DNA of 64,000 nucleotides, taken from positions 3,456,001 through 3,520,000 of the forward strand of contig CM000153.2 in the NCBI GenBank assembly GCA_000004695.1. The letters run 5' to 3'. Positions 6,449 through 45,223 of this stretch are shown here, one piece after another. Numbering within the stretch: the stretch's first letter is position 1; each line of letters starts with the position of its first letter. Under the pieces are notes generated by a model that did no database searches, was not told the origin of the DNA, and worked only from the letters and a program-made list of their open reading frames with translations. Position numbers and translations under genes: made by a program. The DNA comes from Dictyostelium discoideum (Eukaryota).

Positions 6449-6608
6449 TTTTATTTTTTTTTTTTTTTTTTTTTTTTTCTAAATCTAATTTATTTATTAA
6501 TTTTATAAAAATAATTTATTTGTTTTATTAATTTTGATTTCAATGACAATAATAATTTTTTAAAATTTTTTTTGGCTTTTATAGAAAAAAAATATATATT
6601 ATAATAAT

Positions 6609-6639
<31 letters not shown>

Positions 6640-15676: not shown

Positions 15677-15926
15677 GAATTTTTTTTCTTAAGAGCAAAT
15701 ATAGCAAAAAAGAAAAAAGACGTTATTAATTATTAATACCAATGCGGATTGAGTTCTCGGTGATTTTGAAAATATCTTCAATCAAGTGACTTTTTTTTTT
15801 TTTTAAATTTTTAAAATTTTAATGTATTTTTTGAATAAAAACAAAAAACTTTTTTTTTTTTAATTGTTGTCGTTCTCACACTTCAATAAACTGATATTGT
15901 TGTACAACAATTTACAATTTTATTTA

Positions 15927-15957
<31 letters not shown>

Positions 15958-15997
15958 TTTCCAACCAAAAAAAAATAAAAAAATAAAAAAAAAAAAA

Positions 15998-17428: not shown

Positions 17429-17639
17429 GCAAAATAAATATTTTTTTTAAAATCAATTTTTTTTATTAAATATAATAGAAAAAAAAAAATAATAATAAAA
17501 AAAAAAAAAAAAAAAAAAAAATCATTATCTATTTTCTTTTTTTTTTTTTTATTTTATTTTTTATTATATTTTTATTTAAAACAAAAATAAATCAATTTTT
17601 TTTTTTTTTTTTTAAAAAAAGAGATAACCACCTTTAGCA

Positions 17640-19962: not shown

Positions 19963-19965
<3 letters not shown>

Positions 19966-21627
19966 ATAAATCAACCAAATTATTTATTATTTTTTTTATT
20001 ATTTATTTATTTAAATATTTTGGTTGTGAATTCAGATGAAAATATCTTTGTAAATTACAATGTTAATAGAAATTATATTAAACCAGAGGAATGTGGTTCA
20101 TTGGAAATTCCATGTGTTTCTTTAGAAGATGCTGGAAATAAAGCAATTTTAGAAAATAAAAATGGAATTGAAAAAATTATTATCAATATTATTGGAAATA
20201 TCAATGGGTCTACATCGGCATCATTTGGTAATTTATATAGTTTTTGTGGTGTTTTGGAAATTAATTCCTATGACACTCAAAAAATAACGATTGATGGATC
20301 AAATTCAAATAACCCATTTATTAATATTCAAGAGAATCAGTATGAAAGTTGTTTAATTCCAAAAAAATTTCCGATTAGAAATATTAATTTTAAAAACTGG
20401 GAGCAAACATTGGTAAATATTAATATCAACCAAGAAACAAATCAAACTGTAAATGTGGAATCACTATTTATATATTTTACCAATAATACCATGAATTCTT
20501 TAAGTAATATTATTTCTGTTTATCCAAAGAACATGGGAGAGATTTTCAATTCAAAATCAATTTCGATACAGTTTGATAATTCTTTGGCTGAAAAATTAAA
20601 ACCATCGTCAACTTTTGCACCAAATTCAAATACTGATTATTTACCACCCATTTATGTTGTTGGAGCTACAATTAAAAGTATACCTAGTTTAAATGATAAT
20701 AACTTTACCACCACTCCTTTTATTTATCTCAGTCAGGCAATTTTAAGATCTTCACTTCAAACAATCACTAACAACAATTTTTGTTATCCATTTGCAATTT
20801 CAACAAATAAGAGTACTGTGAGCTTTGCAAATTTGTTTGCACCTTTTGACAATAATAAGATTAAAACTCTTCTTTTCATTTCTGACTCATATAATGTTGA
20901 TAGTCTTTTCTTTAACTTTACCAATAATATGCCAGCCGTTTGTTCCAGTAAACAATACCTAGGTAATATATTTGATGACTCTTTTATCACAGTAAAAAAT
21001 TCTTTCAATTCGACTCTTATTACTGGTATTTCACCAAATAAACCTTTACCTGTTTCAATATTTAATAGTGTCACCGAATTAAATTCAATTGATTTAAACC
21101 GTTTTAATTTTAATATTGTCAATAGTGTTGTCATCTTTCGTTTTAATCTTACACTTTCTGAATGTACTATCACTGGAAGTAACTCTGCTCTATACCTAGA
21201 ATATAATGAAACTTTGTGTAGTTGCCCAGGTTGTGACTACTATATGAATGAAAGAAAAGCTTTCTCAACAGATTGCAATCCACCAACTGTAACTCCAACC
21301 ACTACAGGTATAGATACAACCAGAGAACCATCACCATCACCATCATCATCATCGTCATCATCTCCAAAAAATAACTCCATTAGAAACATTGTCATAATTA
21401 TTGTTATTTTGGGGTCAGCATCTATTGCTTCAATTGTACTCTTTTCTTTCATCTACAAAAGACATAAAAATAAAAAGTATATACTAAATTCCATTTCTTC
21501 AAGTAATACTATGAGTGAAGAAGATAATGACTTAGCAGGTGCAGCTGCCGATAATGATGTATCACCAAATCTCGAATCTACTACTGCCTTTGAAGATGAT
21601 GATTGTGCACAATTAGAACATATTTAA
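19963..21627 (+). CDS. L-family type-I membrane glycoprotein, 554 aa
   Basis: It has a signal peptide. Motifs are EECGSLEIPCVSLEDAGNKA, LGNLYSFCG, FKNWEQT, YPKN, LPPIYVVGA and C-S-C-P-G-C-D-Y-Y. A Ser/Pro stretch precedes the TM helix (IVIIIVILGSASIASIVLFSFI). The tail is YKRHKNKKY...DNDVSP...FEDDDCAQLEHI. Confidence 0.7.
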
Positions 21628-22016: not shown

Positions 22017-22481
22017 AAATAATAATAATAAGAATTAAACATTAAACCAATAAAAACAATCCCACATTGTTATAAAAAAAAAAAAAAAATTTTTTCAACT
22101 ACCATCGGTAAGAAACTTTTTAGCAAAAAATAAAAAAACAAACATTGGATAAAAAAAAAAAAAAAAAAATTAAAAAAAAAAGATTATGAAAACCGATTGT
22201 TTTTTTTTTTTTTTTTTTAATATTTTATTATTTTCTAAGATCCAAAAATACCAAATATTACCCCCTTTCCCTAAAAAAAAAAAAAAAAAAAAAATTAATA
22301 GAAAAATATTGTTTATCACAGGTTAAGAGGATATTTTTTCAAAGATCCTAATTTTTTGGCAAACGAAATTGATTTTTTTATTTATTGCGACGATCCTTTT
22401 CTTCTTTTTGATTTTTATTTTTTTTTATTTTTTTTTTTATTTTTTATTTTTTTTTTCAAAATATCTAACTTCCAAATTTTT

Positions 22482-22529
22482 TTATTATAAAACGATCAAT
22501 ACCACTTAGGAACACAAGAACTCTTTTTT
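22482..22529 (+). promoter_or_regulatory. Conserved upstream element of duplicated L-soluble genes (copy 1)
   Basis: The element is ttattataaaacgatcaataccacttaggaacacaagaactctttttt, 105-150 bp upstream of the ATG at 22635. A near-identical block (43/48) sits at the same offset upstream of 30954. In both cases it is flanked by poly-T. Confidence 0.4.
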
Positions 22530-22634
22530 CTTTTCTTTTTTTTTTTTTTTTTTTTATTTTTTTTTTTTTTTTTTTTAATGTAATTTTTCTTTTTTTTTTA
22601 TTTTTTTTTTTATACATTAGATTTACTATAAAAA

Positions 22635-24047
22635 ATGTATAAAGGATTTAATTTTCTTTTTTTGATTTTATTTTTATTGTTAGCATTTAATATCTCATTC
22701 ATAGTTTCACAAAACACTATTTCAGTTAATTATAATGTGCAAAGAAATTATAATTCATTTGAAGAATGTGGTTTAATTGGTGAACCAGTTTGTACATCAT
22801 TGGAAGATGCAGGTAATAGAGCAATTTTATTATCAAAAACAAGTAACCCAACAAACTTCATCAATATCATTGGTAATATTGATGGATCAACACCTGTCAC
22901 ATTTGGTAATTTATATAATTATTGTGGTAGATTGTTTATTAGATCAAGTAATAGCAATATAAGTATTAATATTAATGGATCAAATTCGACTCAACAACCA
23001 TTCCTCACCATTCAAGAAGCTGATCAACCAAATTCGACTTTTCCATGTTCAATTCCAAGAATATTTCAATTCCAATATATTAATTTTACAAACTGGAACC
23101 AAACACTTGTAAATATTAATATTAATCACGAAACAGATTTAAATTCAGTTAATCCATCAAAGAGTTTAACAGTTTATTTTCAACTTGTAAACATAATTTC
23201 TTCAAGTAGTATTTTAAAGATTTATCCAAAGAACTTTGGTGAAAATTATAATTTACAAGCAATTACTGTGGCATATTTATCAACAATTGGTATAGATTTA
23301 AAATCATCATCGGTTTTATTTTTACCAAATTCGACCCAATTTTATTTACCACCAATTTATTTAGTTGGTGCATCAATAATTTCAATTTTAAGTTTATCAG
23401 ATAGTACATTTGAATCAACACCATTTATTTTCTCTGACAATGGAAGTGTATCTTCAGTAGATTCCGAAGTTTCAAATAATAACTTCTATTCATATCCATT
23501 CATTATGGCCGTCAATGGTGGAAAGGTATTACTTCCTATCCTTTCTTTTACAAATAATAGTCTTTCAACTTTTGTTTACTTTTCAAATTTTAATAATCAA
23601 CCATCAATTAAAGTTACATTTTCAAATAACATCTTTGGAAATTCATTCATTCAGAATAGTAAATTTATGAAATATAAATATGAAAATTCTATTTTTGTAA
23701 TAAAAGATAGTGACTTTTCCACCATTGATCTTTTAGGTTATTCAATTTTAAATCAAAACACCATCACCAACGATTTAATATACATAGTAAATAGTAGTTT
23801 AAATTTAGATAATAGTGTAATTAGATCACCAATGTTAGTTCCTCAACATATAATTAATTCAATTAATAGTTCAGTTTCAATTATTAATTTTAACCTTACA
23901 ATCAGCGAACTACCAATTGTTGGTTATAATTCAAATATACATCTATTTAGTTCAGTTTTCACAAACAATGTTTATTGCGGTTGCCAAGGCTGCTCCTATT
24001 ATATTCAATTGGATTTGGTTAATTTAAATCAGTATTCATCTCAATAA
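22635..24047 (+). CDS. L-family secreted glycoprotein (soluble type), 470 aa; copy 1 of duplicated module
   Basis: It has a signal peptide. Motifs are FEECGLIGEPVCTSLEDAGNRA, LGNLYNYCG, FTNWNQT, YPKN, LPPIYLVGA and C-G-C-Q-G-C-S-Y-Y. It has no TM. It is near-identical to 30954..32375. Confidence 0.7.
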   Translation: MYKGFNFLFLILFLLLAFNISFIVSQNTISVNYNVQRNYNSFEECGLIGEPVCTSLEDAGNRAILLSKTSNPTNFINIIGNIDGSTPVTFGNLYNYCGRLFIRSSNSNISININGSNSTQQPFLTIQEADQPNSTFPCSIPRIFQFQYINFTNWNQTLVNININHETDLNSVNPSKSLTVYFQLVNIISSSSILKIYPKNFGENYNLQAITVAYLSTIGIDLKSSSVLFLPNSTQFYLPPIYLVGASIISILSLSDSTFESTPFIFSDNGSVSSVDSEVSNNNFYSYPFIMAVNGGKVLLPILSFTNNSLSTFVYFSNFNNQPSIKVTFSNNIFGNSFIQNSKFMKYKYENSIFVIKDSDFSTIDLLGYSILNQNTITNDLIYIVNSSLNLDNSVIRSPMLVPQHIINSINSSVSIINFNLTISELPIVGYNSNIHLFSSVFTNNVYCGCQGCSYYIQLDLVNLNQYSSQ

Positions 24048-24409
24048 TCTCTAAAACTATTAAATTAATAACTTTCTTAAAAAATTTTTAAAAATAAATA
24101 AAATTTTTTATTCAGTTTAATTGGTGTATTATACTTTTATTTATTTTTTAAAATAACTCTTTTAGTCTGATAACAATAATGATGGTATAGTATTAAAACT
24201 TTGAATCTACATTTTCAAATAACCTTTTTAATAGAAATTTTCAAAACAAAAAAAACTAATATGTAATTTTGAACAATTTTCTTTTTTTCTTTTATTTTAT
24301 TTATTTATTAATTTTTGATTTAAAACTAAAACCAATTAATTATAAAAAAGAGTTTAGAATAAATTTTTTTATATTTTTATTTTATAAACATTTTAATTTA
24401 TTTGAAGTT

Positions 24410-25210
24410 TCAAAACAATTCTTTTAATCTGGTAAATAGTAATGATCTACTATAAAGGCTATTGGCATATATAAAAATGAGCTTCATGTAAGAATTCATA
24501 TTTCCCATATAATCTTCATCTGATGTAAGAGAATCAACATAAAATTCTACTTCTTCTTTACAAGTTGGCATTAAAGATAAAATATCACTAAGTTCATTTT
24601 TAATTAAATTAAAACGGTTTGAAATTAAAATAACAGATTTGATAGCCAAATCATAATTATCTTTAACAACTTGAACAGTGGCTGCATTGGGAGTACTTGG
24701 TAATAAAGAATTTTTTGTTGAATTCATTGCTGAGGCCAAAGATGTTGCTGATTGTTTTATTGTGTCAATGCTTGATTTTAAATTATTAATTGATGTTGAA
24801 ATTGTATCAAATTTTGAAGGGTCATAATTGGTGTATTTTGTAATTGTATTAATATTACCAATAGTATTATTTAAAATGGCAAAGGCAATGTTGTTGGCAT
24901 CATTATATAATGATATTAAATTATTATAATGAGATACGGCTCCAAATGTATTACTTGTCGAGAGAGCTACGATATTATTTAAATAATATTTACTAAATGT
25001 AATATTAAACACCTCCTCTGGCACTTCATAACTAATAGCTTTAGAAAATTGTAAAGCATCTAATTGATTTGAGTATGTAGGTAATGCAGCACGGGGTATA
25101 TCGGCAGGGTTTATAAGATCTCTACCTATTGCCGGTATATAATTTGTAACTAATGAATTTGAAAAACAAACTAAAGAAAGAATAATGACCAAAGGAATTT
25201 GAAAAAACAT
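24410..25210 (-). CDS. S-family secreted protein, 266 aa; copy 1
   Basis: Signal peptide is MFFQIPLVIILSLVCFSNS. Motifs are DIPRAALPTYSNQ, FSKYYLNNIVALSTSN and C-terminal SRSLLFTRLKELF. It lies between the two L genes of the module. Confidence 0.7.
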   Translation of the reverse strand: MFFQIPLVIILSLVCFSNSLVTNYIPAIGRDLINPADIPRAALPTYSNQLDALQFSKAISYEVPEEVFNITFSKYYLNNIVALSTSNTFGAVSHYNNLISLYNDANNIAFAILNNTIGNINTITKYTNYDPSKFDTISTSINNLKSSIDTIKQSATSLASAMNSTKNSLLPSTPNAATVQVVKDNYDLAIKSVILISNRFNLIKNELSDILSLMPTCKEEVEFYVDSLTSDEDYMGNMNSYMKLIFIYANSLYSRSLLFTRLKELF

Positions 25211-26004
25211 TTTTAAAATTATATAAAAAATTAAGAAACTAATGTAAATAAAAAAAGTAAAATTTTGAATATTTTATTATTGAACGAATGAATATAATAA
25301 TGAAATTTTTTTTTTTTTGGTTTAAATAGTAAAAAATTTTATTAAGAAGAAAATTAATTTTTAAAACCAAAGAAAATTGTTGTCGCCAAAGTATTTTTTT
25401 TTTTAAAGTGCAAACATTTTCTAATTTACAAGAATACAAAAAAAGAATGAAATTAACAATCGCAGATCAAACTTGATAGCTCACACTAATTTTCTTATTG
25501 GTCTTTTTTTAAACCCCATCGAAAATAAATTGTTTTTGGTTTATGAAGATTTTCTTGTAAATTGGGTTTTTTTTTTTTTTTTATGTTCACCACCTCAACA
25601 TATTTTTCTTTTAGTTTTAGGAGTTGTGGTATGAGCAAAGGATCATTCCTTGGTTGAAAAAAAAAAATCCTGGCGAATAAGGATTAGAAAAAAACTTTTT
25701 AAAAATTTCAGAAAAAAAAGTAATTTTAAGAAATTTCTCATTCCGACATTGTTGAATTTTTCTTAGAAAAAAAAAAAAACTTGAAAGAAAAAAAAAAAGA
25801 AAAAATTAATTAAAAAAAAAATAATCAAAATAAATTGTTTTTTTAGTATAAAAAACCAATATTATTTTTTAGTATCCACCTAAAAAAAAAAAATTAAAAA
25901 TAAAAAAATATTACCTAAATAATTTTTTACTTCACAGATTTCAAAAAAATAATAAAAATAATGAATAACAATCAAATTAATTTTCTAATTAATACAAATA
26001 AATA

Positions 26005-26053
<49 letters not shown>

Positions 26054-26505
26054 ATGAATAACAACATCAAACAAAACTAAATAAAAAAATAATAAAAAAA
26101 GAATAAAATAAAAAAGAAGAGAAATAAAAAAAACTTGAATAATTAAATTTAGAAATAAAAAAATATAACCCATCCAACTAATGAAAATGAGTATCTCCAA
26201 GAGAACCTGATTTATTTTTTATTATTTTTTATTATTTTTTTTTTATCTGGGCAATTAGTTAGATAAAACTTGAATAGATAATTAGAATATATATGAATAG
26301 ATATCATCTAAGGCCAATAGATAGAGATATAGCCAATTTTGAACATTAATTAAGATTTATAAACTTGGTTGTTTTTTTGAAAAGATTTAGATTCTTTATA
26401 GGCTTCAAATTAACAAATTTACAAATTTTGGTTGGATTTTACTGCTTCATTAATCTTTTTAATCTCTAATTTACTTAAATACTGTAAAGTTATTCAATTA
26501 TTAGA

Positions 26506-28356
26506 TTATAACCTTTCTAGTTGTGCGAAATCTTCATACTCTTGTTCATAAGCCACTACCGATATGTCAATGGTCGGAGAAACTGCTTTTTCATCCTCAT
26601 CTGCAACAGCAATACATGTGCCATCATTAAGTACACTATCATTTGAACTAATTTTATCATGATTATGGAGCTGTGAGTTTGAGATATATTTATTATTTTT
26701 ATGTCTTTTATAAATGAATGAAAATATAATAAGGGATCCAATAGACGCAATACCCAAAACTGAAGTGATAATAGCAATATTCCTTGATCTGCTACTTTTT
26801 GGAGAATTTGGTGTTGCAGTTGATGTTGGTACTGGTGTTTGAGTTGGTTTTTGAGTTGATGTTTCGGTTGTTGGGCTTTCCGTTGGTGTATCTGTTGGTG
26901 TGTCTGTTGGTGTGTCTGTTGGTGTGTCTGTTGGTGTATCTGTTGGTGTATCTGTTGGTGTGTCTGTTGGATTAGAACCACATGGATAGTTTGTGTTATC
27001 ATGTATGGTTTCTCCTAAATAATAACTGCAATTTTGGCAACCACAAAAAGATTCATTTGTAAAGGTGAAAGGATTTAAAAAAAATATGGAGGAATTGCTT
27101 CCAATAATGGGTGTATCAGAATTACTTAGGTCCAAACCAGATAAACTGACTGAACTACTTTCTGTTTTTAAAAAATAATTGGGTGATATAAGTGAAGAAA
27201 TTTCCCTGAATGCAAAAGAGAGTGAACTGTTTTCAACAAAAACTAAAAAGTTTTCAATTGAATTTAAGGAAAGAGTTGATTGCAAACAATCTTTAATTTC
27301 TACGTGGCTCTTTTTGATTACTGCAAATGAATCTTCATATTCAAGTCCAAGATATTTATTTCTGTGATAAAATGGTGTTTGTGTGGTATTCTCGTATTCA
27401 AAGTTAAATAGTGTTGCGCCATTGCAATCATATAAATATATGAATGTGGAGAGTTGGTTGTTTTTGAAAATTAATAATTTCAGTGTGACCAAGGAGCTGA
27501 TTGACAAAATGAATGGATTCACCGAGAAATTATTGTTTGACATTGTTTGAGTTGGAATGTTAATCTCTCCACCTTGGATAAAAACAAACGGAGTAGACAA
27601 GAATGTTCCATTATCTATATTCATACCTCTATTAATAAAACCACCGACCACATAAATAGGTGGTACATAATCGGTAACTGAACCTGGTGCAAACAGACTT
27701 GAAGACGACTTTAAGTTATAACCTAAGGTTGATATAAAATGTACAGTGGTGAACCTTGCGTTGTAAATCTGGCCTAAATTCTTTGGATAAACCATTAATA
27801 TGCTACTTGATGAATATATATTTACACGATTGAAATAAAGAGCAAACGATTTTGAATTGTTAGTTGAAGTTAAATTTGTTTCTTGATTAATGTTGATTTT
27901 TGCAATTGTTTGGTCCCAATTTATGAAATTTATATATTGCAAATAGAAATATCTTTGTGATGTACATGAATAGGTTGAATTTGGTTGATCTGGCTCTTCA
28001 ATATTGAGAAATGGTTGTTGCGTTGAGTTCCAACCATCAATGTTAATATATACAGTGTCACTACCCGATTTAATATATAATTTACCACAATAATTATATA
28101 AATTTCCCAATGAAACAGGTGTTGATCCATTAATATCACTAATAATAATAATATTATTACTTGTATTGGTTTTTGATAATAAAATAGCTCTATTTGAAGC
28201 ATCCTCTAATGATGTACAAACTGGTTGATTATCTACACCACATTCTTCAAAAGAATTGTAATTTCTTTCAACATTATAATTAACTTTAATATCTGTTGCA
28301 ACGCAAATATTTAATAAAAAAAATAATAAATAAAAATATTTTAATTTTTCAATCAT
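26506..28356 (-). CDS. L-family type-I membrane glycoprotein with (PTDT)n stalk, 616 aa; copy 1
   Basis: It has a signal peptide. Motifs are FEECGVDNQPVCTSLEDASNRA, LGNLYNYCG, FINWDQT, YPKN, VPPIYVVGG and C-G-C-Q-N-C-S-Y-Y. The stalk is PTDT x7-8. The TM helix is IAIITSVLGIASIGSLIIFSFI. The tail is YKRHKNNKY...AVADEDEKAVSPTIDISVVAYEQEYEDFAQLERL. Confidence 0.75.
   Translation of the reverse strand: MIEKLKYFYLLFFLLNICVATDIKVNYNVERNYNSFEECGVDNQPVCTSLEDASNRAILLSKTNTSNNIIIISDINGSTPVSLGNLYNYCGKLYIKSGSDTVYINIDGWNSTQQPFLNIEEPDQPNSTYSCTSQRYFYLQYINFINWDQTIAKININQETNLTSTNNSKSFALYFNRVNIYSSSSILMVYPKNLGQIYNARFTTVHFISTLGYNLKSSSSLFAPGSVTDYVPPIYVVGGFINRGMNIDNGTFLSTPFVFIQGGEINIPTQTMSNNNFSVNPFILSISSLVTLKLLIFKNNQLSTFIYLYDCNGATLFNFEYENTTQTPFYHRNKYLGLEYEDSFAVIKKSHVEIKDCLQSTLSLNSIENFLVFVENSSLSFAFREISSLISPNYFLKTESSSVSLSGLDLSNSDTPIIGSNSSIFFLNPFTFTNESFCGCQNCSYYLGETIHDNTNYPCGSNPTDTPTDTPTDTPTDTPTDTPTDTPTDTPTESPTTETSTQKPTQTPVPTSTATPNSPKSSRSRNIAIITSVLGIASIGSLIIFSFIYKRHKNNKYISNSQLHNHDKISSNDSVLNDGTCIAVADEDEKAVSPTIDISVVAYEQEYEDFAQLERL
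26879..26970 (-). repeat. 12-nt tandem coding repeat (tctgttggtgtg) x about 7.7 encoding (PTDT)n
   Basis: This is a direct perfect or near-perfect repeat inside the 26506..28356 CDS. The paralog 34502..36259 carries only about 2.7 units at 34863..34896. Confidence 0.85.
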
Positions 28357-28715
28357 AAACGAAGTTTAATATGTATATATATATTATATATATATAATAT
28401 AATTTATTTAAAATTTCACTATTTTTCGATGATTTATAACCGCTTTAAAAAAAAAAAAATTGAATTAAAAGATCAAATCTCACAATTTTTTTTTTTTTTT
28501 AATTTTTTTTTTTTTAAATTTTTTTTTTTTTAAATTTTTTTTTTTTTTAGTGTTTGAAAAATATCTGGGTGCTTATTTAGATATTAAAGACTTTGGCAAA
28601 ATAAAAAAATATTGAAAAAAAAAATAAAAAAAAAAACTTTGAAAAATGACAGAAGAATAATAATAATAATAAATAAGAATAATGATAATAATTATAACTT
28701 AAGTAAATAATTATA

Positions 28716-28849
28716 CAACTTTAAGTTATTTAAAAAATATTTCCCACCTTCATTTTTTTTTTTTTATTTTTTTTTTTTTTAACCTAAAATTGATCGAGGA
28801 ATCTTAAAGTAAATAAATTAACAACTTTAAAAAAAATATTTCCCACCTT

Positions 28850-28885
<36 letters not shown>

Positions 28886-28943
28886 TGAATATTTCGTTTT
28901 TTTTTTTCATTTTTTGTGAATATTTCGTTTTTTTTTTTCATTT
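28716..28943. repeat. Cluster of short direct repeats in the L-gene 5' region
   Basis: The block acaactttaa...aaaaaatatttcccaccttcattttttttt occurs twice (about 28716..28760 and 28822..28860). The block gtgaatatttcgtttttttttttcatttt is repeated in tandem (28888..28943). These lie 360-590 bp upstream of the start of 26506..28356 (-). Confidence 0.6.
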
Positions 28944-29471
28944 TATTTTAAAATGGATTTTCCCACTGGGACTGTTGTTCTTTTTTTTTTTTTTTTAAAA
29001 AATAAAATAAAATAATATAAAAGTATATTTAAATATAAAATATAAAACAAAACTAAACAAATATATTTAAATAATTGTTTATTTTATTTTTTTCCAAAAA
29101 CAATTTTAATTTTTAATTTAATTTATTTTCCTATTTTTATATTGTTCTATTTTACTTTTACTTTTATTTTATTTTATTTTATTTTATTTTATTTTGATCT
29201 TTTTTTTTTATAATTTTTATTTTCCAATCTAGCGGGTTTTATATATATTTTTTTCTTTGTGTATAATTTTTTATTTTTTTTTATTTTTTTTATTTTATAT
29301 TTACTACTAATTAAAGTGAATGAAAACTACCCTCTCTTTCTCATTTTTTTTTATTGTTTTAAATTTTTTAAAAATAAAGTTAGTAGTTCAGTTTTTTTAA
29401 AAAAAAAAATGACGAAACATGGGTTTAACAGAAAAAAAAAAAAAAAATCTGTTGTATTTTTTGCATTTTCT

Positions 29472-29504
<33 letters not shown>

Positions 29505-30789
29505 CTCTTCTTTACAAATTACGACAATAGTCAAAAAAAATTAATTGAGCAAAGATGAATTTGGTGTAGAAGATATTGGTCAACCAAAAGAAAACAAAAT
29601 ATAAATCAATTAAAGCATACCAAATCATTTATGTGTAGGTTGTTTTTTTTTTTTTTTTTTTTTAAAAAAATAATAAATTAATAGTTACTAATTTTTTTTT
29701 TTCAAAAATTTAGATTATACCGTATTGGTTTGTTGGATCATTAAAAATTTTAGTTCCAACATGTAAAACTCGTGTAGTGAGAATTGCAGTGGCATTAAAA
29801 GAAAGAGCTCATTGGTAAAAGAACACTTAAATCCGGGTTTAGCTCCAATTAGTAGAAAATTTCGTACGAGAGGGTTGTAATGATGATACCTTTCCACACT
29901 TTGTTTCACATCGTTCCATTAAAGCTGCATTGAGATCAAGTGGTCATACCGCCATTGGTTCTGTTGGTAGTTCTGGGTATACTCGTTCTTTTTGTGCCCT
30001 TCTACCACCTGGCCATTGATTCACCCACCAACTGCTCCAAAACCTTTTTATCGTGGTGCAGCCGGTAATGCAACAACAGCAGGAAACAACTTCACAATTT
30101 CAAAATAAATTGGAGACTCAAATACCACACACCAAATTCATAGATAATGTGGCTCATTTACTACACACACTGCAATTGGTGGGGATGTCCAACCTATGTA
30201 ATCGTTTCAACCATATGGTTGATATGAAGAATAAATATAGTAGAATTGCAATGTTGTGGATTTCGATATTCACCATGGTAATGGAACACCACTCTTGAGA
30301 TCCAAAATCAAATTCAATATCAGATTTGGTCGGGGTGTTAATGCGGCACCCATCATCAGTGATGATTAGTAAAAATATGTTCAATATTTTAATATAGTTG
30401 GGATTTCAAAGAGGTACCATTGGAGGAAATATTTTAAAAGTCGATTATCAGCAGTGAATCCAACCAAGTACAACAATTTAATTTTAAAAAAAAATATTAA
30501 AAAATTTATTAAAAATATTAAATAAAATTTATTAAAAGTTTATTTTCACCAGAATAACCGATACCAGAAAAAAAAAAAAAAAAAAAACAAAAAAAAAAAA
30601 AAAAATTAAATTTGAAAAATATCGTTCATCCTTAATTATGAGGAAAAACTATTTTTTTTTTTTTTTTAAAAAGACTTTTATCTAGTTTTTGGCAAATGGT
30701 GTCAAGAAAAAAAAATATTTTTACTTTAATTTTTTTTTATTTTTTTTTTTTTATTTTTTTTTTTTCAAAATATCTTGCTCGAACTTATT

Positions 30790-30837
30790 TTTATTATAAA
30801 ATGATCAAAAACACTTAGAAACACAAGAACTCTTTTT
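30790..30837 (+). promoter_or_regulatory. Conserved upstream element of duplicated L-soluble genes (copy 2)
   Basis: The element is ttattataaaatgatcaaaaacacttagaaacacaagaactctttttt. Its partner is at 22482..22529. Confidence 0.4.
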
Positions 30838-30859
30838 TTTTTTTCTTTACTTTTTTTTC

Positions 30860-30890
<31 letters not shown>

Positions 30891-30893
30891 TAT

Positions 30894-30940
<47 letters not shown>

Positions 30941-30953
30941 ATTTGTAATAAAA

Positions 30954-32375
30954 ATGTATAAAGGATTTAATTTTCTTTATTTGTCAGTAGTCTTATTGTT
31001 AGCATTTAATATCTCATTCACATTTTCACAAAACACTATTTCAGTTAATTATAATGTGCAAAGAAATTATAATTCATTTGAAGAATGTGGTTTAAATGGT
31101 GAACCAGTTTGTACATCATTGGAAGATGCAGGTAATAGAGCAATTTTATTATCAAAAACAAGTAATCCAACAAACATCATCAATATCATTGGTAATATTG
31201 ATGGATCAACACCTGTCACATTTGGTAATTTATATAATTATTGTGGTAAATTGTTTATTAGATCAAGTATTAGTAATGTCAATATTAATATTAATGGATC
31301 AAATTCGACTCAACAACCATTCCTCACCATTCAAGAAGCTGATCAACCAAATTCGACTTTTCCATGTTCAATTCCAAGAATATTTCAATTCCAATATATT
31401 AATTTTACAAATTGGGATCAAACACTTGTAAATATTAATATTAATCAAGAAACAGATTTAAATTCAGTTAATCCATCAAAGAGTTTAACAGTTTATTTTC
31501 AACTTGTAAATATAATTTCTTCAAGTAGTATTTTAAAGATTTATCCAAAGAACTTTGGTGAAAATTATAATTTACAAGCAATTAAAGTTTCATTTATATC
31601 AACAATTGGAATAGACTTAAAATCATCATCGGTTTTATTTTCACCAAGTTCAACCCAATATTATTTACCACCAATTTATTTAGCCGGTGCATCAGTAACT
31701 AGAATTTTAAGTTTATCAGATAGTACATTTGAATCAACACCATTTATTTTCTCTGATAATGGAGGTGTATCATCTGGAAGTTTCGTCGTTTCAAATAATA
31801 ACTTCTCTTCAAATCCATTCATTATGGCCGTCAATGGTGGAACTGTAGCACTTCCTACCCTTTCTTTTACAAATAATATTCTTTCAACATTTATTTACTT
31901 TTCAAATTTTTATAATCAACCATTAATTCAGGCTACATTTTCAAATAACATCTTTGGAAATTCTTTCGTTCAGAATAATAAATTTATGGAATATGAAAAT
32001 GAAAATTCTATTTTTGTAATAAAAGATAGTGACTTTTCCACCATTGATCTCTTAGGTTATTCAATTTTAAATCAAAACACCATTGCCAACGATTTAATAT
32101 ACATAGTAAATAGCAGTTTAAATTTAGATAATAGTGTAATTAGATCACCAATGTTAGTTCCTCAACATATAATTAATTCAATTAATAGTTCAGTTTCAAT
32201 TATTAATTTTAACCTTACAATCAGCGAACTACCAATTGTTGGATTTAATTCAAATATACATCTATTTAGTTCAGTTTTCACAAACGATGTTTACTGTGGT
32301 TGCCAAGGCTGCTCATTTTATATTCAATTGGATTTGGTTGACCCATTAGAATACTTATCTCAATGCAATCTCTAA
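30954..32375 (+). CDS. L-family secreted glycoprotein (soluble type), 473 aa; copy 2
   Basis: It is near-identical to 22635..24047. Substitutions are clustered and the C-terminal end is altered (…SFYIQLDLVDPLEYLSQCNL). Confidence 0.7.
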   Translation: MYKGFNFLYLSVVLLLAFNISFTFSQNTISVNYNVQRNYNSFEECGLNGEPVCTSLEDAGNRAILLSKTSNPTNIINIIGNIDGSTPVTFGNLYNYCGKLFIRSSISNVNININGSNSTQQPFLTIQEADQPNSTFPCSIPRIFQFQYINFTNWDQTLVNININQETDLNSVNPSKSLTVYFQLVNIISSSSILKIYPKNFGENYNLQAIKVSFISTIGIDLKSSSVLFSPSSTQYYLPPIYLAGASVTRILSLSDSTFESTPFIFSDNGGVSSGSFVVSNNNFSSNPFIMAVNGGTVALPTLSFTNNILSTFIYFSNFYNQPLIQATFSNNIFGNSFVQNNKFMEYENENSIFVIKDSDFSTIDLLGYSILNQNTIANDLIYIVNSSLNLDNSVIRSPMLVPQHIINSINSSVSIINFNLTISELPIVGFNSNIHLFSSVFTNDVYCGCQGCSFYIQLDLVDPLEYLSQCNL

Positions 32376-32591
32376 ATTTATTAAATCTAAAGTAATAAAT
32401 ATAAATATATTACTGTAAACGTGTTTTAAAAAAGAATTAATATTTAATTTTGAACAATTTTTCTTTTATATTCTAAATTTTCTTTTATTTTTTTATTTTT
32501 ATTAATTTTTAAAAACAAAAAAAAACAATTGATTTTTAAAAAAGAGTTTAAAATAAAATTTATATCTTTTTATTTTTATTTATTTGATGTT

Positions 32592-33392
32592 TTAAAACAA
32601 TTCTTTTAATCTGGTAAATAGTAATGATCTACTATAAAGAGTATTTACATTTTTAAAAATGAGCTTCAAATAAGAATTCATATTTCCCATATAATCTTCA
32701 TCTGATGTAAGAGAATCAACATAAAATTCTACTTCTTCTTTACAAGTTGGCATTAAAGATAAAATATCACTAAGTTCATTTTTAATTAAATTAAAACGGT
32801 TTGAAATTAAAATAACAGATTTGATAGCCAAATCATAATTATCTTTAACAACTTGAACAGTGGCTGCATTGGGAGTACTTGGTAATAAAGAATTTTTTGT
32901 TGAATTCATTGCTGAGGCCAAAGATGTTGCTGATTGTTTTATTGTGTCAATGCTTGATTTTAAATTATTAATTGATGTTGAAATTGTATCAAATTTTGAG
33001 GTATCATAATTGGTGTATTTGGTAATTGTATTAATATAACCAATTGTATTGTTTAAACAAACAAGAGAAATGTTGTTGACTTCATTATATAATGATATTA
33101 AATTATTATAATGAGTAACGGCTCCAAATGCATTACTTGTCGAGAGGGCAACGATATTATTCAAATAATATTTACTAAATATAATATTAAATACATCACC
33201 TTGAACTTCATAACTCATAGCTTTTGAAAATTGTAAAGCATCAATTTGATTAGAGTATGTAGGTAATGCAGCACGGGGTATATCAGCAGGGTTAATAAGA
33301 TCTCTACCTATTGCGGGTATATAATTTGAAACCAATGAGTTTGAAAAACAAACTAAATAAAGAATAATGACCAAAGGAATTTGGAAAAACAT
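32592..33392 (-). CDS. S-family secreted protein, 266 aa; copy 2
   Basis: It is a paralog of 24410..25210. The C-terminal half is almost identical (one change, M-to-L, across about 115 aa). The N-terminal half carries about 15 substitutions. Confidence 0.7.
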   Translation of the reverse strand: MFFQIPLVIILYLVCFSNSLVSNYIPAIGRDLINPADIPRAALPTYSNQIDALQFSKAMSYEVQGDVFNIIFSKYYLNNIVALSTSNAFGAVTHYNNLISLYNEVNNISLVCLNNTIGYINTITKYTNYDTSKFDTISTSINNLKSSIDTIKQSATSLASAMNSTKNSLLPSTPNAATVQVVKDNYDLAIKSVILISNRFNLIKNELSDILSLMPTCKEEVEFYVDSLTSDEDYMGNMNSYLKLIFKNVNTLYSRSLLFTRLKELF

Positions 33393-33824
33393 TTTTAAAA
33401 TTTTAAAAAAATGTATAAATTAATGTAAATAATAATTTAAAGGATAAATATTTGAATATTTTATTATTGAATGAATGAAAATGATAATGGAATTTTTTTT
33501 TTTTTTGGTTTAAATAGTGGAATATTAATTTTTTAAAACCAAAGAAAAATGTGTATTTTTTTTTTTTGTCATTTGCAAAAATTATTACAAACATGATTGT
33601 TGAAGATTTTCTTGGAATGGGTTTTTTTCTTTTTTTTTGTTCAACACCTTAACATATTTTTCTTTTTGTTTAAAGAGTTGTGATGTGATCACAGGATTAT
33701 TCCTTGATATCAAAAAAAAAACCTGGCCAATAAGGATTAAAAAAAATCTTTTAAAATTCCAGGAAAACAATGAATTATGTAAAATTTTTCTAATTTTTTA
33801 ATTTAATAAAGAAAAAAAGAAATG

Positions 33825-33870
<46 letters not shown>

Positions 33871-34501
33871 AAAAAATAAAAATGATTAAAAAAATTACTA
33901 AATCAAAGAAAGTTTAATTTTATTTGTTTGTATTTTTAAATTTTAATTAAAAAAACCAATATGCTTTTTAGTGTTTAAAATTTTTTATTAAAGAAAAAAA
34001 AAATAAAAAAAAAAAAATAAATAAATAATATATAATAAAAATAACTCCAAACAAAAGTAAATAAAGGAAAAAAAAAAAAAAAAAAAAAAAAAAATAATAA
34101 CTCTATGCAACTAACGAAAAGGAGTATCCCTAAGAGGACCTGATTTATTTTTGATTGTTTTTTAATTTTAATTTTAATTTTATTTTTTAAATTAATATTA
34201 TTTTTTCTTGGTTTAAATTATTAGTTATTATTATTTATTGTCACTAAAATGAGTTTGTAAAAAATGAAGATTTGTTTATTGGCAATTTAAAAACTTTTAT
34301 TAACCGTTACACCATTTTATCTAGTCATTTAATCTTATATTTAAGATTTATAATCTATGTTATTTTTTTTTTTTTTTGAAAAGATTTAGCTACTTCATGG
34401 GCTCCCAAATTTAACAAGGATCTAAATTTAATTGAAATTTACTGATTCATTAATCTTTCTAACCACTACTTAAAATTCTATAAGATTTATTCAATGATAG
34501 A

Positions 34502-36259
34502 TTATAACTGTTCTAGTTGTGCAAAATCTTCATACTCTTGTTCATAAGCCACTACCGATATGTCAATGGTCGGAGAAACTGCTTTTTCATCCTCATCTGC
34601 AACAGCAATACATGGGCTATCATTAAGTATGCTATCATTTGAACTAATTTTATCATGATTATGGAGTTGTGAGTTTGAGATATATTTATTATTTTTATGT
34701 CTTTTATAAATGAATGAGAATATAATAAGACATGCGATAGATGCAATACCTAAAATTGAAATAATAATAGAAATGTTCCTTGATCTGCTACTTTTAGGAG
34801 AGTTTGGCGTTGAAGTTGATGTTGGTGCTGATGTTTGAGTTGATGTTTCGGTTGATGGATTTTCTGTTGGTTGATCTGTTGGTGTGTCTGTTGGATTAGA
34901 ACTACAAATATAGTTTGTGGTATCATGTATGGTTTCTCCTAAATAAAAGCTGCAATTTTGGCAACCACAAAAGGATTTGTTTGTAAAAGTGATATGACCA
35001 AAAAAAAATATGGAGGAGTTACTTCCAATAATGGGTGTATCAGAACTACTTAGGTCCAAACCAGATAAACTGACTGAACTACTTTCTGTTTTTAAAAAAT
35101 AATTGGGTGATATAAGCGAAGAAATTTCAATGAATGCAAAAGAGAGTGAACTGTTTTCAACAAAAACTAAAAAGTTTTCAATTGAATTTAAGGAAAGAGT
35201 TGATTGCAAACAATCTTTAATTTCTACGTGGCTCTTTTTGATTACTGCAAATGAATCTTCATATTCAAGTCCAAGATATTTATTTCTGTGATAAAATGGT
35301 GTTTGTGTGGTATTCTCGTATTCAAAGTTAAATAGTGTTGCGCCATTGCAATCATATAAATATATGAATGTGGAGAGTTGGTTGTTTTTGAAAATCAATG
35401 CTTTCAGTGTGACCAAGGAGCTGATTGACAAAATGAATGGATTCACAGAGAAATTAATGTTTGATATTTTTTGAATTGGAATATATATCTCTCCACCTTG
35501 GATAAAAACAAACGGAGTAGACAAGAATGTTCCATTATCTATATTCATACCTCTATTAATAAAACCACCGACCACATAAATAGGTGGTACATAATCGGTA
35601 ACTGAACCTGGTGCAAACAGACTTGAAGACGACTTTAAGTTATAACCTAAGGTTGATATAAAATGTACAGTGGTGAACCTTGCGTTGTAAATCTGGCCTA
35701 AATTCTTTGGATAAACCATTAATATGCTACTTGATGAATATATATTTACACGATTGAAATAAAGAGCAAACGATTTTGAATTGTTAGTTGAAGTTAAATT
35801 TATTTCTTGATTAATGTTGATTTTTGCAATTGTTTGATCCCAATTTAAATGTCTTTGCGATGTACATGAATAGGTTGAATTTGGTTGATCTGGCTCTTCA
35901 ATATTGAGAAATGGTAGTTGCGTTGAGTTCCAACCATCAATGTTAATAGATACATTATCACTACTTGATTTAATATATAAAGTACCACAATAATTATATA
36001 AATTTCCCAATGAAACAGGTGTTGATCCATTAATATCACTATTAATAACAATACTATTATTACTTGTACTGGTTTTTGATAATAAAATAGCTCTATTTGA
36101 AGCATCTTCAAATGATGTACAAACTGGTTGATTATCTACACCACATTCTTCAAAAGAATTGTAATTTCTTTCAACATTATAATTAACTTTAATATCTGTT
36201 GCAACGCAAATATTTAATAAAAAAAATAATAAATAAAAATATTTTAATTTTTCAATCAT
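34502..36259 (-). CDS. L-family type-I membrane glycoprotein, 585 aa; copy 2 (shorter stalk repeat, internal 10-aa deletion)
   Basis: It is a paralog of 26506..28356. It has only about 2 PTDT-type units. It lacks YFYLQYINFI, which includes the family-wide INF.NW motif. The TM and tail are conserved (…VAYEQEYEDFAQLEQL). Confidence 0.7.
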   Translation of the reverse strand: MIEKLKYFYLLFFLLNICVATDIKVNYNVERNYNSFEECGVDNQPVCTSFEDASNRAILLSKTSTSNNSIVINSDINGSTPVSLGNLYNYCGTLYIKSSSDNVSINIDGWNSTQLPFLNIEEPDQPNSTYSCTSQRHLNWDQTIAKININQEINLTSTNNSKSFALYFNRVNIYSSSSILMVYPKNLGQIYNARFTTVHFISTLGYNLKSSSSLFAPGSVTDYVPPIYVVGGFINRGMNIDNGTFLSTPFVFIQGGEIYIPIQKISNINFSVNPFILSISSLVTLKALIFKNNQLSTFIYLYDCNGATLFNFEYENTTQTPFYHRNKYLGLEYEDSFAVIKKSHVEIKDCLQSTLSLNSIENFLVFVENSSLSFAFIEISSLISPNYFLKTESSSVSLSGLDLSSSDTPIIGSNSSIFFFGHITFTNKSFCGCQNCSFYLGETIHDTTNYICSSNPTDTPTDQPTENPSTETSTQTSAPTSTSTPNSPKSSRSRNISIIISILGIASIACLIIFSFIYKRHKNNKYISNSQLHNHDKISSNDSILNDSPCIAVADEDEKAVSPTIDISVVAYEQEYEDFAQLEQL

Positions 36260-36366
36260 AAATGAAGTTAATAGTTTAATATTTTTATATATATATTTTT
36301 AAAAAATTTTACTATAATAACATTAAAAAAAAAAGATCAAATCTCATAATAATTTTTTTCAACTCG

Positions 36367-36402
<36 letters not shown>

Positions 36403-36496
36403 CCAAAAACAGCGTTTTTTTCTCTTAAGAAGCAGTTGAACTTGATTTTTATTTTAAAAAATTTTTGAGAACTTATTTGGGCTTTAATTTTGGCCC

Positions 36497-36547
<51 letters not shown>

Positions 36548-36736
36548 AAAAAATATAAATATAAAAACTAAAAGAAACCTTAGTTTGAGAATTAAAAATT
36601 ATATAGGTTTAAAACAAAATTTTTTTTTTTCTTTATTTCTTTTTTATTTTTTTTATTTTAAAAGATAAAAGATAATCACTTTTTTTTTTTTTTTTTTTTT
36701 TTTTTTTCTTTCTTGATAATAATACAGTGTAAAAAC

Positions 36737-37654
36737 GATATGAGATCATGAAGTTGAGTTAACCATATCCAGCATAATCTTCAAATTGACGTTCATAGTC
36801 TACCACATGCTATAGATCAAGCCCAAAATAACTGTAACAATGATAATATTCCTAGTCTTACTATCAATTGGACTTGTTGTTGTTGATGTTGATGGTAATG
36901 TAGTTGAGGTAGTTATAGTTGTTGTAGTTGATGTTGTAGTTGTAGTTGATGTTGTTAAAGCTGATGTGGTTGGTGTTGTTGCAGCTGAAGTAGTTGATGT
37001 TGTTCCAGCTGATGCGTTTGATGTTGTTGAAGTAGTTGTGGTTGATGTTGTGGAAGCAAATGTAGTAGATGTTGTTGAGGTTGTTGGTGTCGGTGTCAGT
37101 GTCGGATCAATGCAAGTGTGGTTAACGATGGGAATAAATTGAGAACCATATATAAGAAAATATTTACATTCTTCACAACCACAATAAATGTTATTTAATT
37201 TAGTGCTTTTTTTTGATAAATTCACATCTGAATTATTTCCAATCCCAACTTGTGAAATTCATATATTGAAAGAAGAGCCATCTTGAACATGATTGAGTTT
37301 GGTTATTTTCTTCTTCTGGTTCATATGTCAGAAATGGTTGGGTTGAGCTTGATCCTCGATTATTGTATAATTATTATTTTCATTATTGATATTTTCTGAA
37401 GTGATCCACAAGGCACCACAATAATTACCCAATGTAATTTGTTCTGATGTTACACTTATATTACCAATGATACCAATACAAACACGACTATTATTTGATA
37501 TTAATAAAAATGCTCTATTAACAGCATCTTTGAGTGATGTGCATATAGGTTCATTATTCATACCACATCCTTTTGATGAATTATAAACAGTTGGGATGTT
37601 GTAATTTAATAAAATCGTTGAATTTGGGCATAGCGGCGATGAAATATTTGCCAT
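36737..37654 (-). pseudogene. Partial tandem copy of the 37674..39545 L gene with two internal deletions
   Basis: Tracks 37328..37654 and 36800..37225 match the N-terminal 100 aa and the C-terminal stalk region of the neighbouring gene. The central roughly 815 bp and about 150 bp of the TM/tail region are missing. Both unit boundaries share the sequence tatgagatcatgaag. Confidence 0.6.
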
Positions 37655-37673: not shown

Positions 37674-39545
37674 TTAGTCATATTCAGCATAATCTTCAAA
37701 TTGATGTTCATAGGCTACCAATGTGAGATCAATAGTTGGAGATACTGCTTTCTCATCTTCTTCAGCCACAGCATATAGGTTACTATCAAAGCTCGGTTTT
37801 TCAGTGGATGAGGTATGTGATATGAATCTCCTATTTTTATACATTTTATAGATTAATGAGAATATTATGAGAGATGCTATAGACGCAGTGCCCAAAATAA
37901 CCGTAACAATAATAATATTCCTAGTCTTACTATCAATTGGACTTGTTGTTGTTGTTGTTGATGATGATAATGATGATGATAATGTAGTTGAGCTTGTTGC
38001 AGCTGATGTAGTTGATGTTGTTCCAGCTGATGTAGTTGATGTTGTTGGAGTAGCTGTGGTTGATGTTGTTGAAGCCAATGTAGTTGATGTTGTTGAGGTT
38101 GAGGTTATTGTTGTTGTTGGTGTAGGTGTTGGTGTTGGTGTCGGATCAATGCAAGTGTGGTTAACGATGGGAATAAATTGATAACCATATATAAGAAAAT
38201 ATTTACATTCTTCACAACCACAATAAATGTTATTTAATTTAGTGCTTTTTTCTGATAAATTCACATCTGAATTATTTCCAATCACTGGAAACATATTTGA
38301 TTGTCCACCTACAGCATCTTGTAAACTGACTGAACTATTGATAATGATAAGTATATGATCCACTTGGATTGGAAATAAACTACTATATGTTATTTTTAAA
38401 GAACTTTCTTCTGCAAAAAATAGACAGTGTACAGAGACATTTGGATTGAGTCTGTTGACCAAATAATTTTTTATACCAAATGTTTTGCCACTGGAATTCT
38501 TCATTGTTATTGATGAATTCTCTAATTGGTATCCTAAATAACTCTTTCTTTGATAATTGAGTGGACTTGATACATTTTTGAAGTATATACGACTAAATAG
38601 ATCTCTTTCAGTGGTTTGTGGGAACTGTGAGATAAAGAGAAATGTACTCATTATAGTGTTGGAGAAATTAGAGTGACCAATAAAATCCAAGCTTGAATTA
38701 ATGAGAAACATGAATGGATTCTCGAAGAAATTACAATTTTCTATCGTTGATTCAGCAGAATATACAAATGATCCTTTTTCGATGTATATAAATGGAATTG
38801 CTTCTAATACACTATCAAATAAACTTAAATTGAAAGTAATTGAACCACCCATCACATAAATTGGTGATATAAAATCGGTCAAGGAATTTGGAGCTAAAAT
38901 GGTGGGCGGTTTTAGGTTGAACACTTTTGTATAAGTAAAGCCTATCCTCAAAGATTGATAGTTATAAATAAAAGCAATACTTCTTGGTGAAATTATATTA
39001 CAACTTTCGAAATATATGAAACTTGATTGTTTCTCGGAATTATCTGAAATTTGATTGGTCACAGAGACAATTGGTCTATCCCAATTTGTAAAATTTATAT
39101 ATTGAAAGAAGAACCATCTTGAACATGATTGAGTTTGATTATTTTCCTCTTCTGGTTCATATGTCAGAAATGGTTGGGTTGAGCTTGATCCATCGATTAT
39201 TGTATAATTATTATTTTCATTATTGATATTTTCTGAAGTGATCCACAAGGCACCACAATAATTACCCAATGTAATTTGTTCTGATGTTACATTTATATTA
39301 CCAATGATACCAATACAAACACGACTATTATTTGATATTAATAAAAATGCTCTGCTAACAGCATCTTTGAGTGATGTGCATATCGGCTCGTTATTAAAAC
39401 CACATCCTTCTGATGAATTATAAACCGTTAGGATGTTGTAATTTAATAAAATCGTTGAATTTGGGCATAGCGGCGCTGAAACCACAAAAACAATTTTTAA
39501 AAATATTGCAAACAAAATTGAAAAATTATTTGATTTTCTAATCAT
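37674..39545 (-). CDS. L-family type-I membrane glycoprotein, 623 aa
   Basis: It has a signal peptide. Motifs are EGCGFNNEPICTSLKDAVSRA, LGNYCGALW, FTNWDRP, ISPIYVMGG and C-G-C-E-E-C-K-Y-F. The stalk is T/P/S-rich. The TM helix is IIIVTVILGTASIASLIIFSLI. The tail is YKMYKNRRF...AVAEEDEKAVSPTIDLTLVAYEHQFEDYAEYD. Confidence 0.7.
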   Translation of the reverse strand: MIRKSNNFSILFAIFLKIVFVVSAPLCPNSTILLNYNILTVYNSSEGCGFNNEPICTSLKDAVSRAFLLISNNSRVCIGIIGNINVTSEQITLGNYCGALWITSENINNENNNYTIIDGSSSTQPFLTYEPEEENNQTQSCSRWFFFQYINFTNWDRPIVSVTNQISDNSEKQSSFIYFESCNIISPRSIAFIYNYQSLRIGFTYTKVFNLKPPTILAPNSLTDFISPIYVMGGSITFNLSLFDSVLEAIPFIYIEKGSFVYSAESTIENCNFFENPFMFLINSSLDFIGHSNFSNTIMSTFLFISQFPQTTERDLFSRIYFKNVSSPLNYQRKSYLGYQLENSSITMKNSSGKTFGIKNYLVNRLNPNVSVHCLFFAEESSLKITYSSLFPIQVDHILIIINSSVSLQDAVGGQSNMFPVIGNNSDVNLSEKSTKLNNIYCGCEECKYFLIYGYQFIPIVNHTCIDPTPTPTPTPTTTITSTSTTSTTLASTTSTTATPTTSTTSAGTTSTTSAATSSTTLSSSLSSSTTTTTSPIDSKTRNIIIVTVILGTASIASLIIFSLIYKMYKNRRFISHTSSTEKPSFDSNLYAVAEEDEKAVSPTIDLTLVAYEHQFEDYAEYD

Positions 39546-42173: not shown

Positions 42174-45129
<2,956 letters not shown>

Positions 45130-45223
45130 CTAATAAAATAAAAAAATAATAATAAAAAAAAAAAAAAAAATTTGTTAATATTATAATTATTAATATTTAT
45201 AAATAATATTATTATTAACATAC

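Follow-up and report, generated by a model that had tools for sequence, protein, structure and literature searches.

A mosaic of identity and divergence between two tandem genes of Dictyostelium discoideum is very probably the trace of recent gene conversion

How can two tandem copies of a gene be identical over one part of their length and strongly diverged over the rest? This question is raised by a pair of genes in a 64,000-nucleotide stretch of the Dictyostelium discoideum genome (GenBank assembly GCA_000004695.1, contig CM000153.2, positions 3,456,001 to 3,520,000; hereinafter the window), which consists of 78% A+T. The two genes, DDB_G0285623 (copy A) and DDB_G0285629 (copy B), are denoted S, the label that the initial annotation of this DNA gave to the small gene within a three-gene unit that is repeated here. 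Both open reading frames (ORFs) exactly match hypothetical proteins of D. discoideum AX4. From the sequence alone, the initial annotation described nearly identical C-terminal halves and substantially substituted N-terminal halves of the two proteins, and proposed that either a recent gene conversion in the C-terminal half or diversifying selection on the N-terminal half produced this pattern. Our analysis points with high confidence to a recent tract of non-allelic gene conversion, in the lineage of the AX4 and AX2 strains, between old tandem paralogs.

A gap-free alignment of the two coding sequences (CDS) of 801 nucleotides (nt) shows 51 nt differences and 23 amino-acid differences, with 91.4% identity between the proteins. 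The distribution of the 51 differences is extremely uneven: 42 are found in nt 1-393, none in nt 394-722 and the remaining 9 in nt 723-801, with 8 of these 9 packed within nt 723-753. At the protein level, residues 1-131 include 18 changes (13.7%, compared to 42 nt changes, or 10.7%) and residues 242-251 include another 5. The peptides that were originally quoted as distinguishing the copies (EVPEEV and EVQGDV, DANNIAFAIL and EVNNISLVCL, KLIFIYANSLYS and KLIFKNVNTLYS) are all present in the ORFs, and the mosaic itself is real. The invariant block, however, spans 110 amino acids (aa) rather than about 115; the M/L difference that had been assigned to its interior is residue 242, immediately outside the block; and the divergence reported as about 15 changes in residues 1-140 is real but amounts to 18 changes in residues 1-131.

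Such a run of identity is not expected by chance. When 51 differences were placed at random on 801 sites, none of the 200,000 placements yielded a run of at least 329 nt (the largest was 233 nt), and the analytic bound for a chance run of 329 nt is about 1e-10. A GENECONV-style test restricted to the 171 sites at which 9 sequences are polymorphic gave the same outcome, 0 of 200,000, and Fisher's test comparing 42 differences in 393 nt with 0 in 329 nt gave p = 4e-12. The identity extends to synonymous sites. Nei-Gojobori estimates of synonymous (dS) and non-synonymous (dN) divergence for the AX4 pair are dS 0.32 and dN 0.068 in nt 1-393 (ratio omega 0.21), 0 for both in nt 394-720 (omega not defined), and dS 0.22 and dN 0.085 in nt 721-798 (omega 0.38). 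Equal synonymous divergence of the two halves, which had been named as the observation incompatible with conversion, is not found: for synonymous changes alone, the contrast with the tract is 22 to 0 (Fisher's test, p = 5e-7).

Comparison with other isolates places the mosaic in an evolutionary context. Orthologous DNA of four loci was taken, via homolog search, from recently deposited Dictyostelium genomes. The source of these genomes is Holland et al. 2025, where CR116C and OT3A are Central American D. discoideum that are genetically diverged from AX4, and M4B and S6B are termed possible cryptic species (PMC12745789). The tandem S pair is also carried by two D. discoideum isolates (L001 and L002) and by one isolate designated "cf. 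discoideum" (L003); in a second "cf. discoideum" isolate (L004), there is one S copy within 10 kb on either side, and in Dictyostelium firmibasis (L007), the unit is single and unduplicated. Over nt 1-393, 14-18 differences separate AX4 copy A from the other A copies and 38-42 separate it from the B copies; copy B shows the reciprocal relationship. In nt 394-722, copies A and B differ by 19 nt in L001 and by 21 nt in L002 (dS 0.13-0.16) compared to 0 in AX4; with these counts as the expectation, a Poisson model assigns zero differences a probability below 1e-8. Synonymous sites in the tract are, therefore, free to vary. The AX4 tract itself differs from its orthologs by 16-21 nt (dS about 0.10-0.14), and 61 of the 329 tract sites are polymorphic among nine sequences.

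The phylogenies of the two segments, reconstructed by neighbour-joining with 300 bootstraps, are incongruent. The tree of nt 1-393 consists of an A clade (99.7% bootstrap) and a B clade (100%) that each cut across strains; in the tree of nt 394-722, the two AX4 copies are grouped together with 100% support. At CDS nt 462, 509 and 626, both AX4 copies share AX4-specific derived states that differ from all 7 other sequences, outgroups included, which implies that a mutation in one copy was transferred to the other. Conversely, 20 of the 21 differences that are fixed between the paralogs across three strains lie in nt 9-393 and one lies at nt 800, and 9 of the 12 polymorphisms common to both paralogs lie in nt 448-626. 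At paralog-specific polymorphisms, the minority allele always matches the other paralog (33 of 33, whichever copy is taken), but this finding was discarded as trivially true for biallelic sites. The S copies of L003 carry an independent identical tract of 356 nt (nt 371-726), the ends of which lie within 23 nt (5') and 4 nt (3') of those of the AX4 tract.

A separate observation concerns nt 448-453 (24758-24763 in copy A and 32940-32945 in copy B). Across nt 448-451 and nt 453, both AX4 copies and both L003 copies have the five-base haplotype A,C,A,A plus A, and both copies of both other D. discoideum isolates have T,T,G,G plus C. Because each haplotype is shared between the paralogs, the segment must have been exchanged in those other lineages too. 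The S-gene orthologs show dS of 0.10-0.13, about twice the dS of 0.063 (dN 0.016) that separates AX4 from L005 in the neighbouring non-family gene at 42174-45227. Hyper-polymorphism of the two S genes was considered and rejected, given this value for the neighbouring gene and the fact that the comparison isolates are already diverged from AX4 (PMC12745789).

Gene conversion, the first of the two originally proposed alternatives, is thus upheld by four lines of evidence, namely, the drop of dS from 0.32 and 0.22 in the flanks to 0 in the tract, the 19-21 differences that the paralog pairs of two other isolates retain there, the incongruence of the segment trees, and the derived states shared by both copies. 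This is a clean but ordinary instance of gene conversion between tandem duplicates, that is, a new example of a known process. The informative sites delimit a minimum tract of 236 bp (CDS nt 462-697), and the run of identity sets the maximum at 329 bp (nt 394-722). The event is later than the split of the AX4/AX2 lineage from the Central American isolates, and from the 95% Poisson bound of 3 expected differences, we infer that it falls within roughly the last sixth of the divergence between AX4 and its orthologs.

Mechanistically, homologous-recombination repair would suffice, with one copy serving as the template and overwriting 236-329 bp of the other in the AX4/AX2 lineage, presumably when a break was repaired by strand invasion into a misaligned paralog or sister chromatid. 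Such overwriting would leave the tract identical at synonymous and non-synonymous sites alike, and the flanks would keep the original divergence of about 11%. The tract edges meet dense clusters of mismatches, with 16 differences in the 82 nt of nt 312-393, the segment that includes codons 104-114, and 8 differences in the 31 nt of nt 723-753; extension of the heteroduplex was probably rejected at these clusters. The tract limits may also owe something to selection for the retention of paralog-specific residues at codons 63-67 and 104-114.

Several points weigh against this account. The assignment of the donor from diagnostic sites, at which A and B are each fixed for a base of their own in the other isolates, is contradictory: 9 such sites in the AX4 tract (nt 518-625) match copy B of those isolates and 6 (nt 515 and 680-697) match copy A, which implies either more than one event (two, in opposite directions) or changes in the own lineages of the comparison strains. 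Copies A and B are identical over nt 394-473 in L001 and L002 too, so that the 5' limit of the tract can be placed only to nt 394-462. The comparison includes only three D. discoideum genotypes that are deeply diverged from one another, and the event is accordingly dated loosely. The role of mismatch clusters in setting the tract limits is conjectural. The GC content of the tract, a potential sign of biased conversion, shows no enrichment, which is neutral evidence.

Could diversifying (positive) selection have driven the N-terminal halves apart while the C-terminal half remained unchanged, as the second original alternative holds? The non-conservative changes do cluster, at codons 63-67 and 104-112, and both clusters represent fixed paralog differences in three strains. 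Nevertheless, no dN/dS above 1 was found in the segments (0.21 for nt 1-393, 0.38 for the 3' end) or in a sliding scan, where the maximum pN/pS of a 30-codon window is 0.48, and a McDonald-Kreitman-type test (11 non-synonymous and 9 synonymous fixed differences vs 17 and 23 polymorphic ones) gives p = 0.42. With dN/dS well below 1 throughout, diversifying selection is removed as the cause of the mosaic, and selection on the N-terminal half cannot, in any case, account for dS = 0 in the tract. The clusters also hold fixed synonymous differences (codons 63, 67, 109, 114, 130 and 131), as expected of old unconverted DNA, and because the islands at codons 63-67 and 104-114 include such differences, they may be merely unconverted old DNA rather than selected sites. 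At codons 63-67, the copies are distinct in all 4 genomes that carry the pair; at codons 104-114, they are distinct in AX4, L001 and L002 and homogenised in L003. Diversifying selection on the N-terminal half is, accordingly, not supported, and we regard it as highly improbable. The converse possibility, strong purifying constraint on the C-terminal half that includes synonymous sites, for example, because of an overlapping RNA or regulatory element, might seem to gain from the identity of A and B over nt 394-473 in two other isolates, but is refuted by the divergence of the orthologs described above, both between A and B within those isolates and between AX4 and its orthologs, and by the polymorphism of nearly one-fifth of the tract sites; it retains only a very slight probability.

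Near-identical tandem repeats in such an A+T-rich genome are hard to assemble, so that reads of both copies might have been collapsed or chimerised in the reference. However, both S CDS are nucleotide-identical to the window in GCA_054883475.1, an assembly that is, as we infer, the AX2-214 long-read assembly of PMC12745789 and thus represents a sister laboratory strain. The surrounding 20-kb locus of this assembly is 99.3-99.8% identical to the window, with 23 mismatches and 21 gaps in 17.5 kb elsewhere in the locus; these small locus-wide differences indicate an independent assembly rather than a copy of the reference, and the mosaic is, therefore, no assembly artefact. Moreover, paralog-specific flanks lie less than 400 nt from the tract on either side, within the length of a single Sanger read. 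The chance of an artefact is thus practically nil. A recent duplication, in which the identical part would reflect the true age of the pair and the flanks would have diverged rapidly through hypermutation or import from a third donor, has no specific support and appears just as remote. The A and B lineages in nt 1-393 extend across strains with bootstrap support of about 100%, which makes the duplication older than the divergence of the strains, and the mean identity over the 8-kb unit is no higher than 87-91%. No third copy that could be a donor was seen, whether for the flanks, within the window, or for the tract, at more than 95% identity: the other S-family genes in the window are at most 36% identical, and the 90% cluster of the S protein holds only two AX4 sequences.

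Gene conversion at this locus is not confined to the S genes, as a description of the mosaic in these genes alone would suggest. The S pair belongs to a direct tandem duplication of 8.2 kb that comprises three genes (L', S and L), with 87-91% identity in the coding parts and much less in the spacers (Table 1). The duplication arose within the discoideum clade after the split of D. firmibasis and is common to AX4/AX2 and three other isolates. The proteins encoded in units A and B have 470 and 473 aa (L') and 616 and 585 aa (L), respectively. In AX4, the L and L' pairs include perfectly identical patches of 265, 315, 152, 129 and 128 nt, so that patches run across the whole unit and all three gene pairs; in other strains, the patches in the L and L' genes are found at different places. 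Because these patches shift between strains, and because L003 has its own S tract of 356 nt, conversion between the units is recurrent, affecting each of the three gene pairs and each strain examined: concerted evolution is in progress. The stalks of the L copies also contain unequal numbers of PTDT repeats (about 26800-26960 vs 34790-34890; columns 401-500 of the L alignment), and copy B of L in AX4 has a copy-specific in-frame deletion of 24 nt in the beta-helix region (...SQRHLNWDQT... vs ...SQRYFYLQYINFINWDQT...).

Table 1. Positions of the S genes, their segments, the duplicated units and related genes in the window.
Feature	Position	Strand	Remarks
S gene copy A = DDB_G0285623	24410..25210	-	single exon, 266 aa; ORF and exact match to XP_638170.1
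S gene copy B = DDB_G0285629	32592..33392	-	single exon, 266 aa; ORF and XP_638175.1
Conversion tract, copy A	24489..24817	-	CDS nt 394-722, codons 132-241 (110 aa); 329 nt identical to copy B
Conversion tract, copy B	32671..32999	-	same 329 nt, CDS nt 394-722
Unconverted 5' part, copy A	24818..25210	-	CDS nt 1-393; 42 differences to copy B; dS 0.32, dN 0.068, omega 0.21
Unconverted 5' part, copy B	33000..33392	-	counterpart of copy A nt 1-393
Diverged 3' end, copy A	24410..24488	-	CDS nt 723-801; 9 differences, 8 of 9 inside nt 723-753
Diverged 3' end, copy B	32592..32670	-	counterpart of copy A nt 723-801
Paralog-fixed island, copy A, codons 63-67	25010..25024	-	VPEEV (A) vs VQGDV (B), a difference that is fixed across AX4 and two other isolates; synonymous sites are among those fixed
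Paralog-fixed island, copy A, codons 104-114	24869..24901	-	DANNIAFAIL (A) vs EVNNISLVCL (B); separated from the 5' end of the tract by about 50 nt
Duplication unit A	22406..28782		L' 22635-24047 (+), S gene A, L 26506-28356 (-); self-BLAST and unit alignment
Duplication unit B	30718..36662		L' 30954-32375 (+), S gene B, L 34502-36259 (-); self-BLAST and unit alignment
Identical patch, L pair, 265 nt	27207..27471	-	partner 35131-35395
Identical patch, L pair, 315 nt	27563..27877	-	partner 35487-35801
Identical patch, 5' end of L pair, 152 nt	28208..28359	-	partner 36111-36262
S-family genes in the window	18787-19530, 24410-25210, 32592-33392, 40907-41686, 47514-48284		possibly also 13352-14119
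L-family genes in the window	4993-6417, 10393-12270, 15998-17428, 19963-21627, 22635-24047, 26506-28356, 30954-32375, 34502-36259, 37674-39545, 48616-50448

The two units are part of a larger cluster. Between positions 4993 and 50448 of the window, S-family genes, which are small and secreted, take turns with the larger L-family genes, an arrangement that looks as though modules of one S and one L gene duplicate together; the order of S and L genes is also kept in D. firmibasis, where the A/B unit is present in a single copy. The cluster also holds a second and older duplication, an inverted pair of L-related genes that encode proteins of 474 and 476 aa (4883-6624 vs 15791-17528; 81% DNA identity and 80% protein identity). 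In L005 (15326-19714, locus tags ACTFIR_), an additional L/S pair is located downstream of the ortholog of the L-family gene at 48616-50448; this pair has no counterpart in the AX4 window, where its best matches show 33-44% identity, and the cluster, therefore, shows presence/absence polymorphism. The S-family gene DDB_G0285633 (40907-41686, + strand) is only 77% identical at the protein level to its counterpart in L005 (3464-4243), with dS 0.33 and dN 0.135. This dS is five times that of the neighbouring non-family gene, and the divergence could reflect an old allelic lineage or a non-orthologous replacement. Immediately upstream of the L-family gene at 37674-39545, the region 36807-37644 includes fragmentary duplicates of 37874-38283 (80%) and 39078-39481 (95%). 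These fragments are probably a pseudogene remnant; in GCA_054883475.1, a 221-aa gene is called at this position.

The functions encoded in the cluster can be approached only indirectly. The S protein is predicted to be a secreted helical bundle (AlphaFold2 model of copy A with a predicted local distance difference test score, pLDDT, of 79). When the six proteins encoded by the two units were scanned against Pfam, nothing exceeded the threshold; a profile search with the S protein against 1.8 billion proteins recovered only 8 cluster representatives, and a full-text literature search with six gene identifiers, drawn from the two units and an adjacent gene, found no paper. Membership among the ClyA-type alpha-helical pore-forming toxin components, elongated helical bundles such as those of ClyA, Nhe, Hbl, YaxAB and Mak, was considered and rejected: the fold match is of a kind that any long helical bundle would give, inspection of the S sequence by eye revealed no hydrophobic segment beyond the signal peptide that could serve as a head or beta-tongue for membrane insertion, and no Pfam match rose above the threshold.

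It is conceivable, albeit unlikely, that the S proteins are secreted helical bundles that pair with the beta-helix surface proteins L and L' encoded next to them, in modules that duplicate as a whole, and that selection repeatedly stops conversion at paralog-specific determinants. The basis of this suggestion is that six S-family genes adjoin L-family genes in the window and that this order is kept in D. firmibasis. The determinants would be codons 63-67, codons 104-114 and the last helix, with conversion freely homogenising the C-terminal helices, a proposition to which we give equally little credence. A stop imposed by selection would explain why the tracts in AX4 and in the cryptic lineage end so close to each other on both sides. 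If true, this scenario would imply a second polymorphic gene cluster for recognition or interaction in Dictyostelium, shaped by conversion and selection.

Conversion between old tandem paralogs, the explanation that we favor for the mosaic, changes no concept and invokes a standard process. Its value lies in good documentation of a case of concerted evolution, from a protist with a poorly described recombination landscape, and in an estimate of the tract length for a haploid genome with 78% A+T, namely, 236-329 bp in the AX4/AX2 lineage and 356 bp in a sister lineage. In practical terms, conversion tracts that are left unmasked in this cluster will yield misleading paralog trees, dN/dS scans and short-read variant calls.

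Interlocus conversion between tandem duplicates is a familiar phenomenon, with the human fetal globin genes HBG1 and HBG2 as the textbook case, and the opsins and many other genes as further examples. The S pair resembles such cases in several respects: the paralogs are arranged as direct tandem copies at a distance of a few kb, older divergence surrounds a patch of identity that has sharp boundaries and a length of a few hundred bp, dS is erased in the patch, and the patch groups by genome whereas the flanks group by paralog. Unlike those cases, the S genes belong to an orphan family in a haploid amoebozoan with a 78% A+T genome, identical patches occur in all three gene pairs of the unit, and no GC bias is visible. 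Interlocus gene conversion has also been surveyed genome-wide, in Drosophila (PMC2588116) and in human (bioRxiv 10.1101/135152).

Two other systems provide more specific parallels. The ATP1A1 paralogs of Leptodactylus are reported to evolve in concert, with a few selected differences that resist conversion (bioRxiv 10.1101/2020.08.04.234435). There, as in the S genes, most of the gene is homogenised by conversion, and small paralog-specific islands persist across lineages; the differences retained in Leptodactylus confer toxin resistance, whereas the islands in the S genes are without known function and include synonymous differences. Within Dictyostelium, mosaicism has been described and interlocus conversion or recombination suggested for the tgrB/tgrC recognition family (PMC12745789; bioRxiv 10.1101/2025.10.22.684067). 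None of the S, L and L' genes belongs to the tgr family: Pfam yields no match for them, their predicted fold is different, and the AX4 identifiers of the cluster fall in the chromosome-4 range, whereas tgrBC is located elsewhere. In addition, the between-strain dS of the two S genes (0.10-0.13) exceeds that of the neighbouring non-family gene (0.063) by a factor of only about two. What the two systems share, in the same organism, is the clustering of duplicated genes for secreted or surface proteins, the intermingling of paralogs in phylogenetic trees and a gene content that varies among strains.

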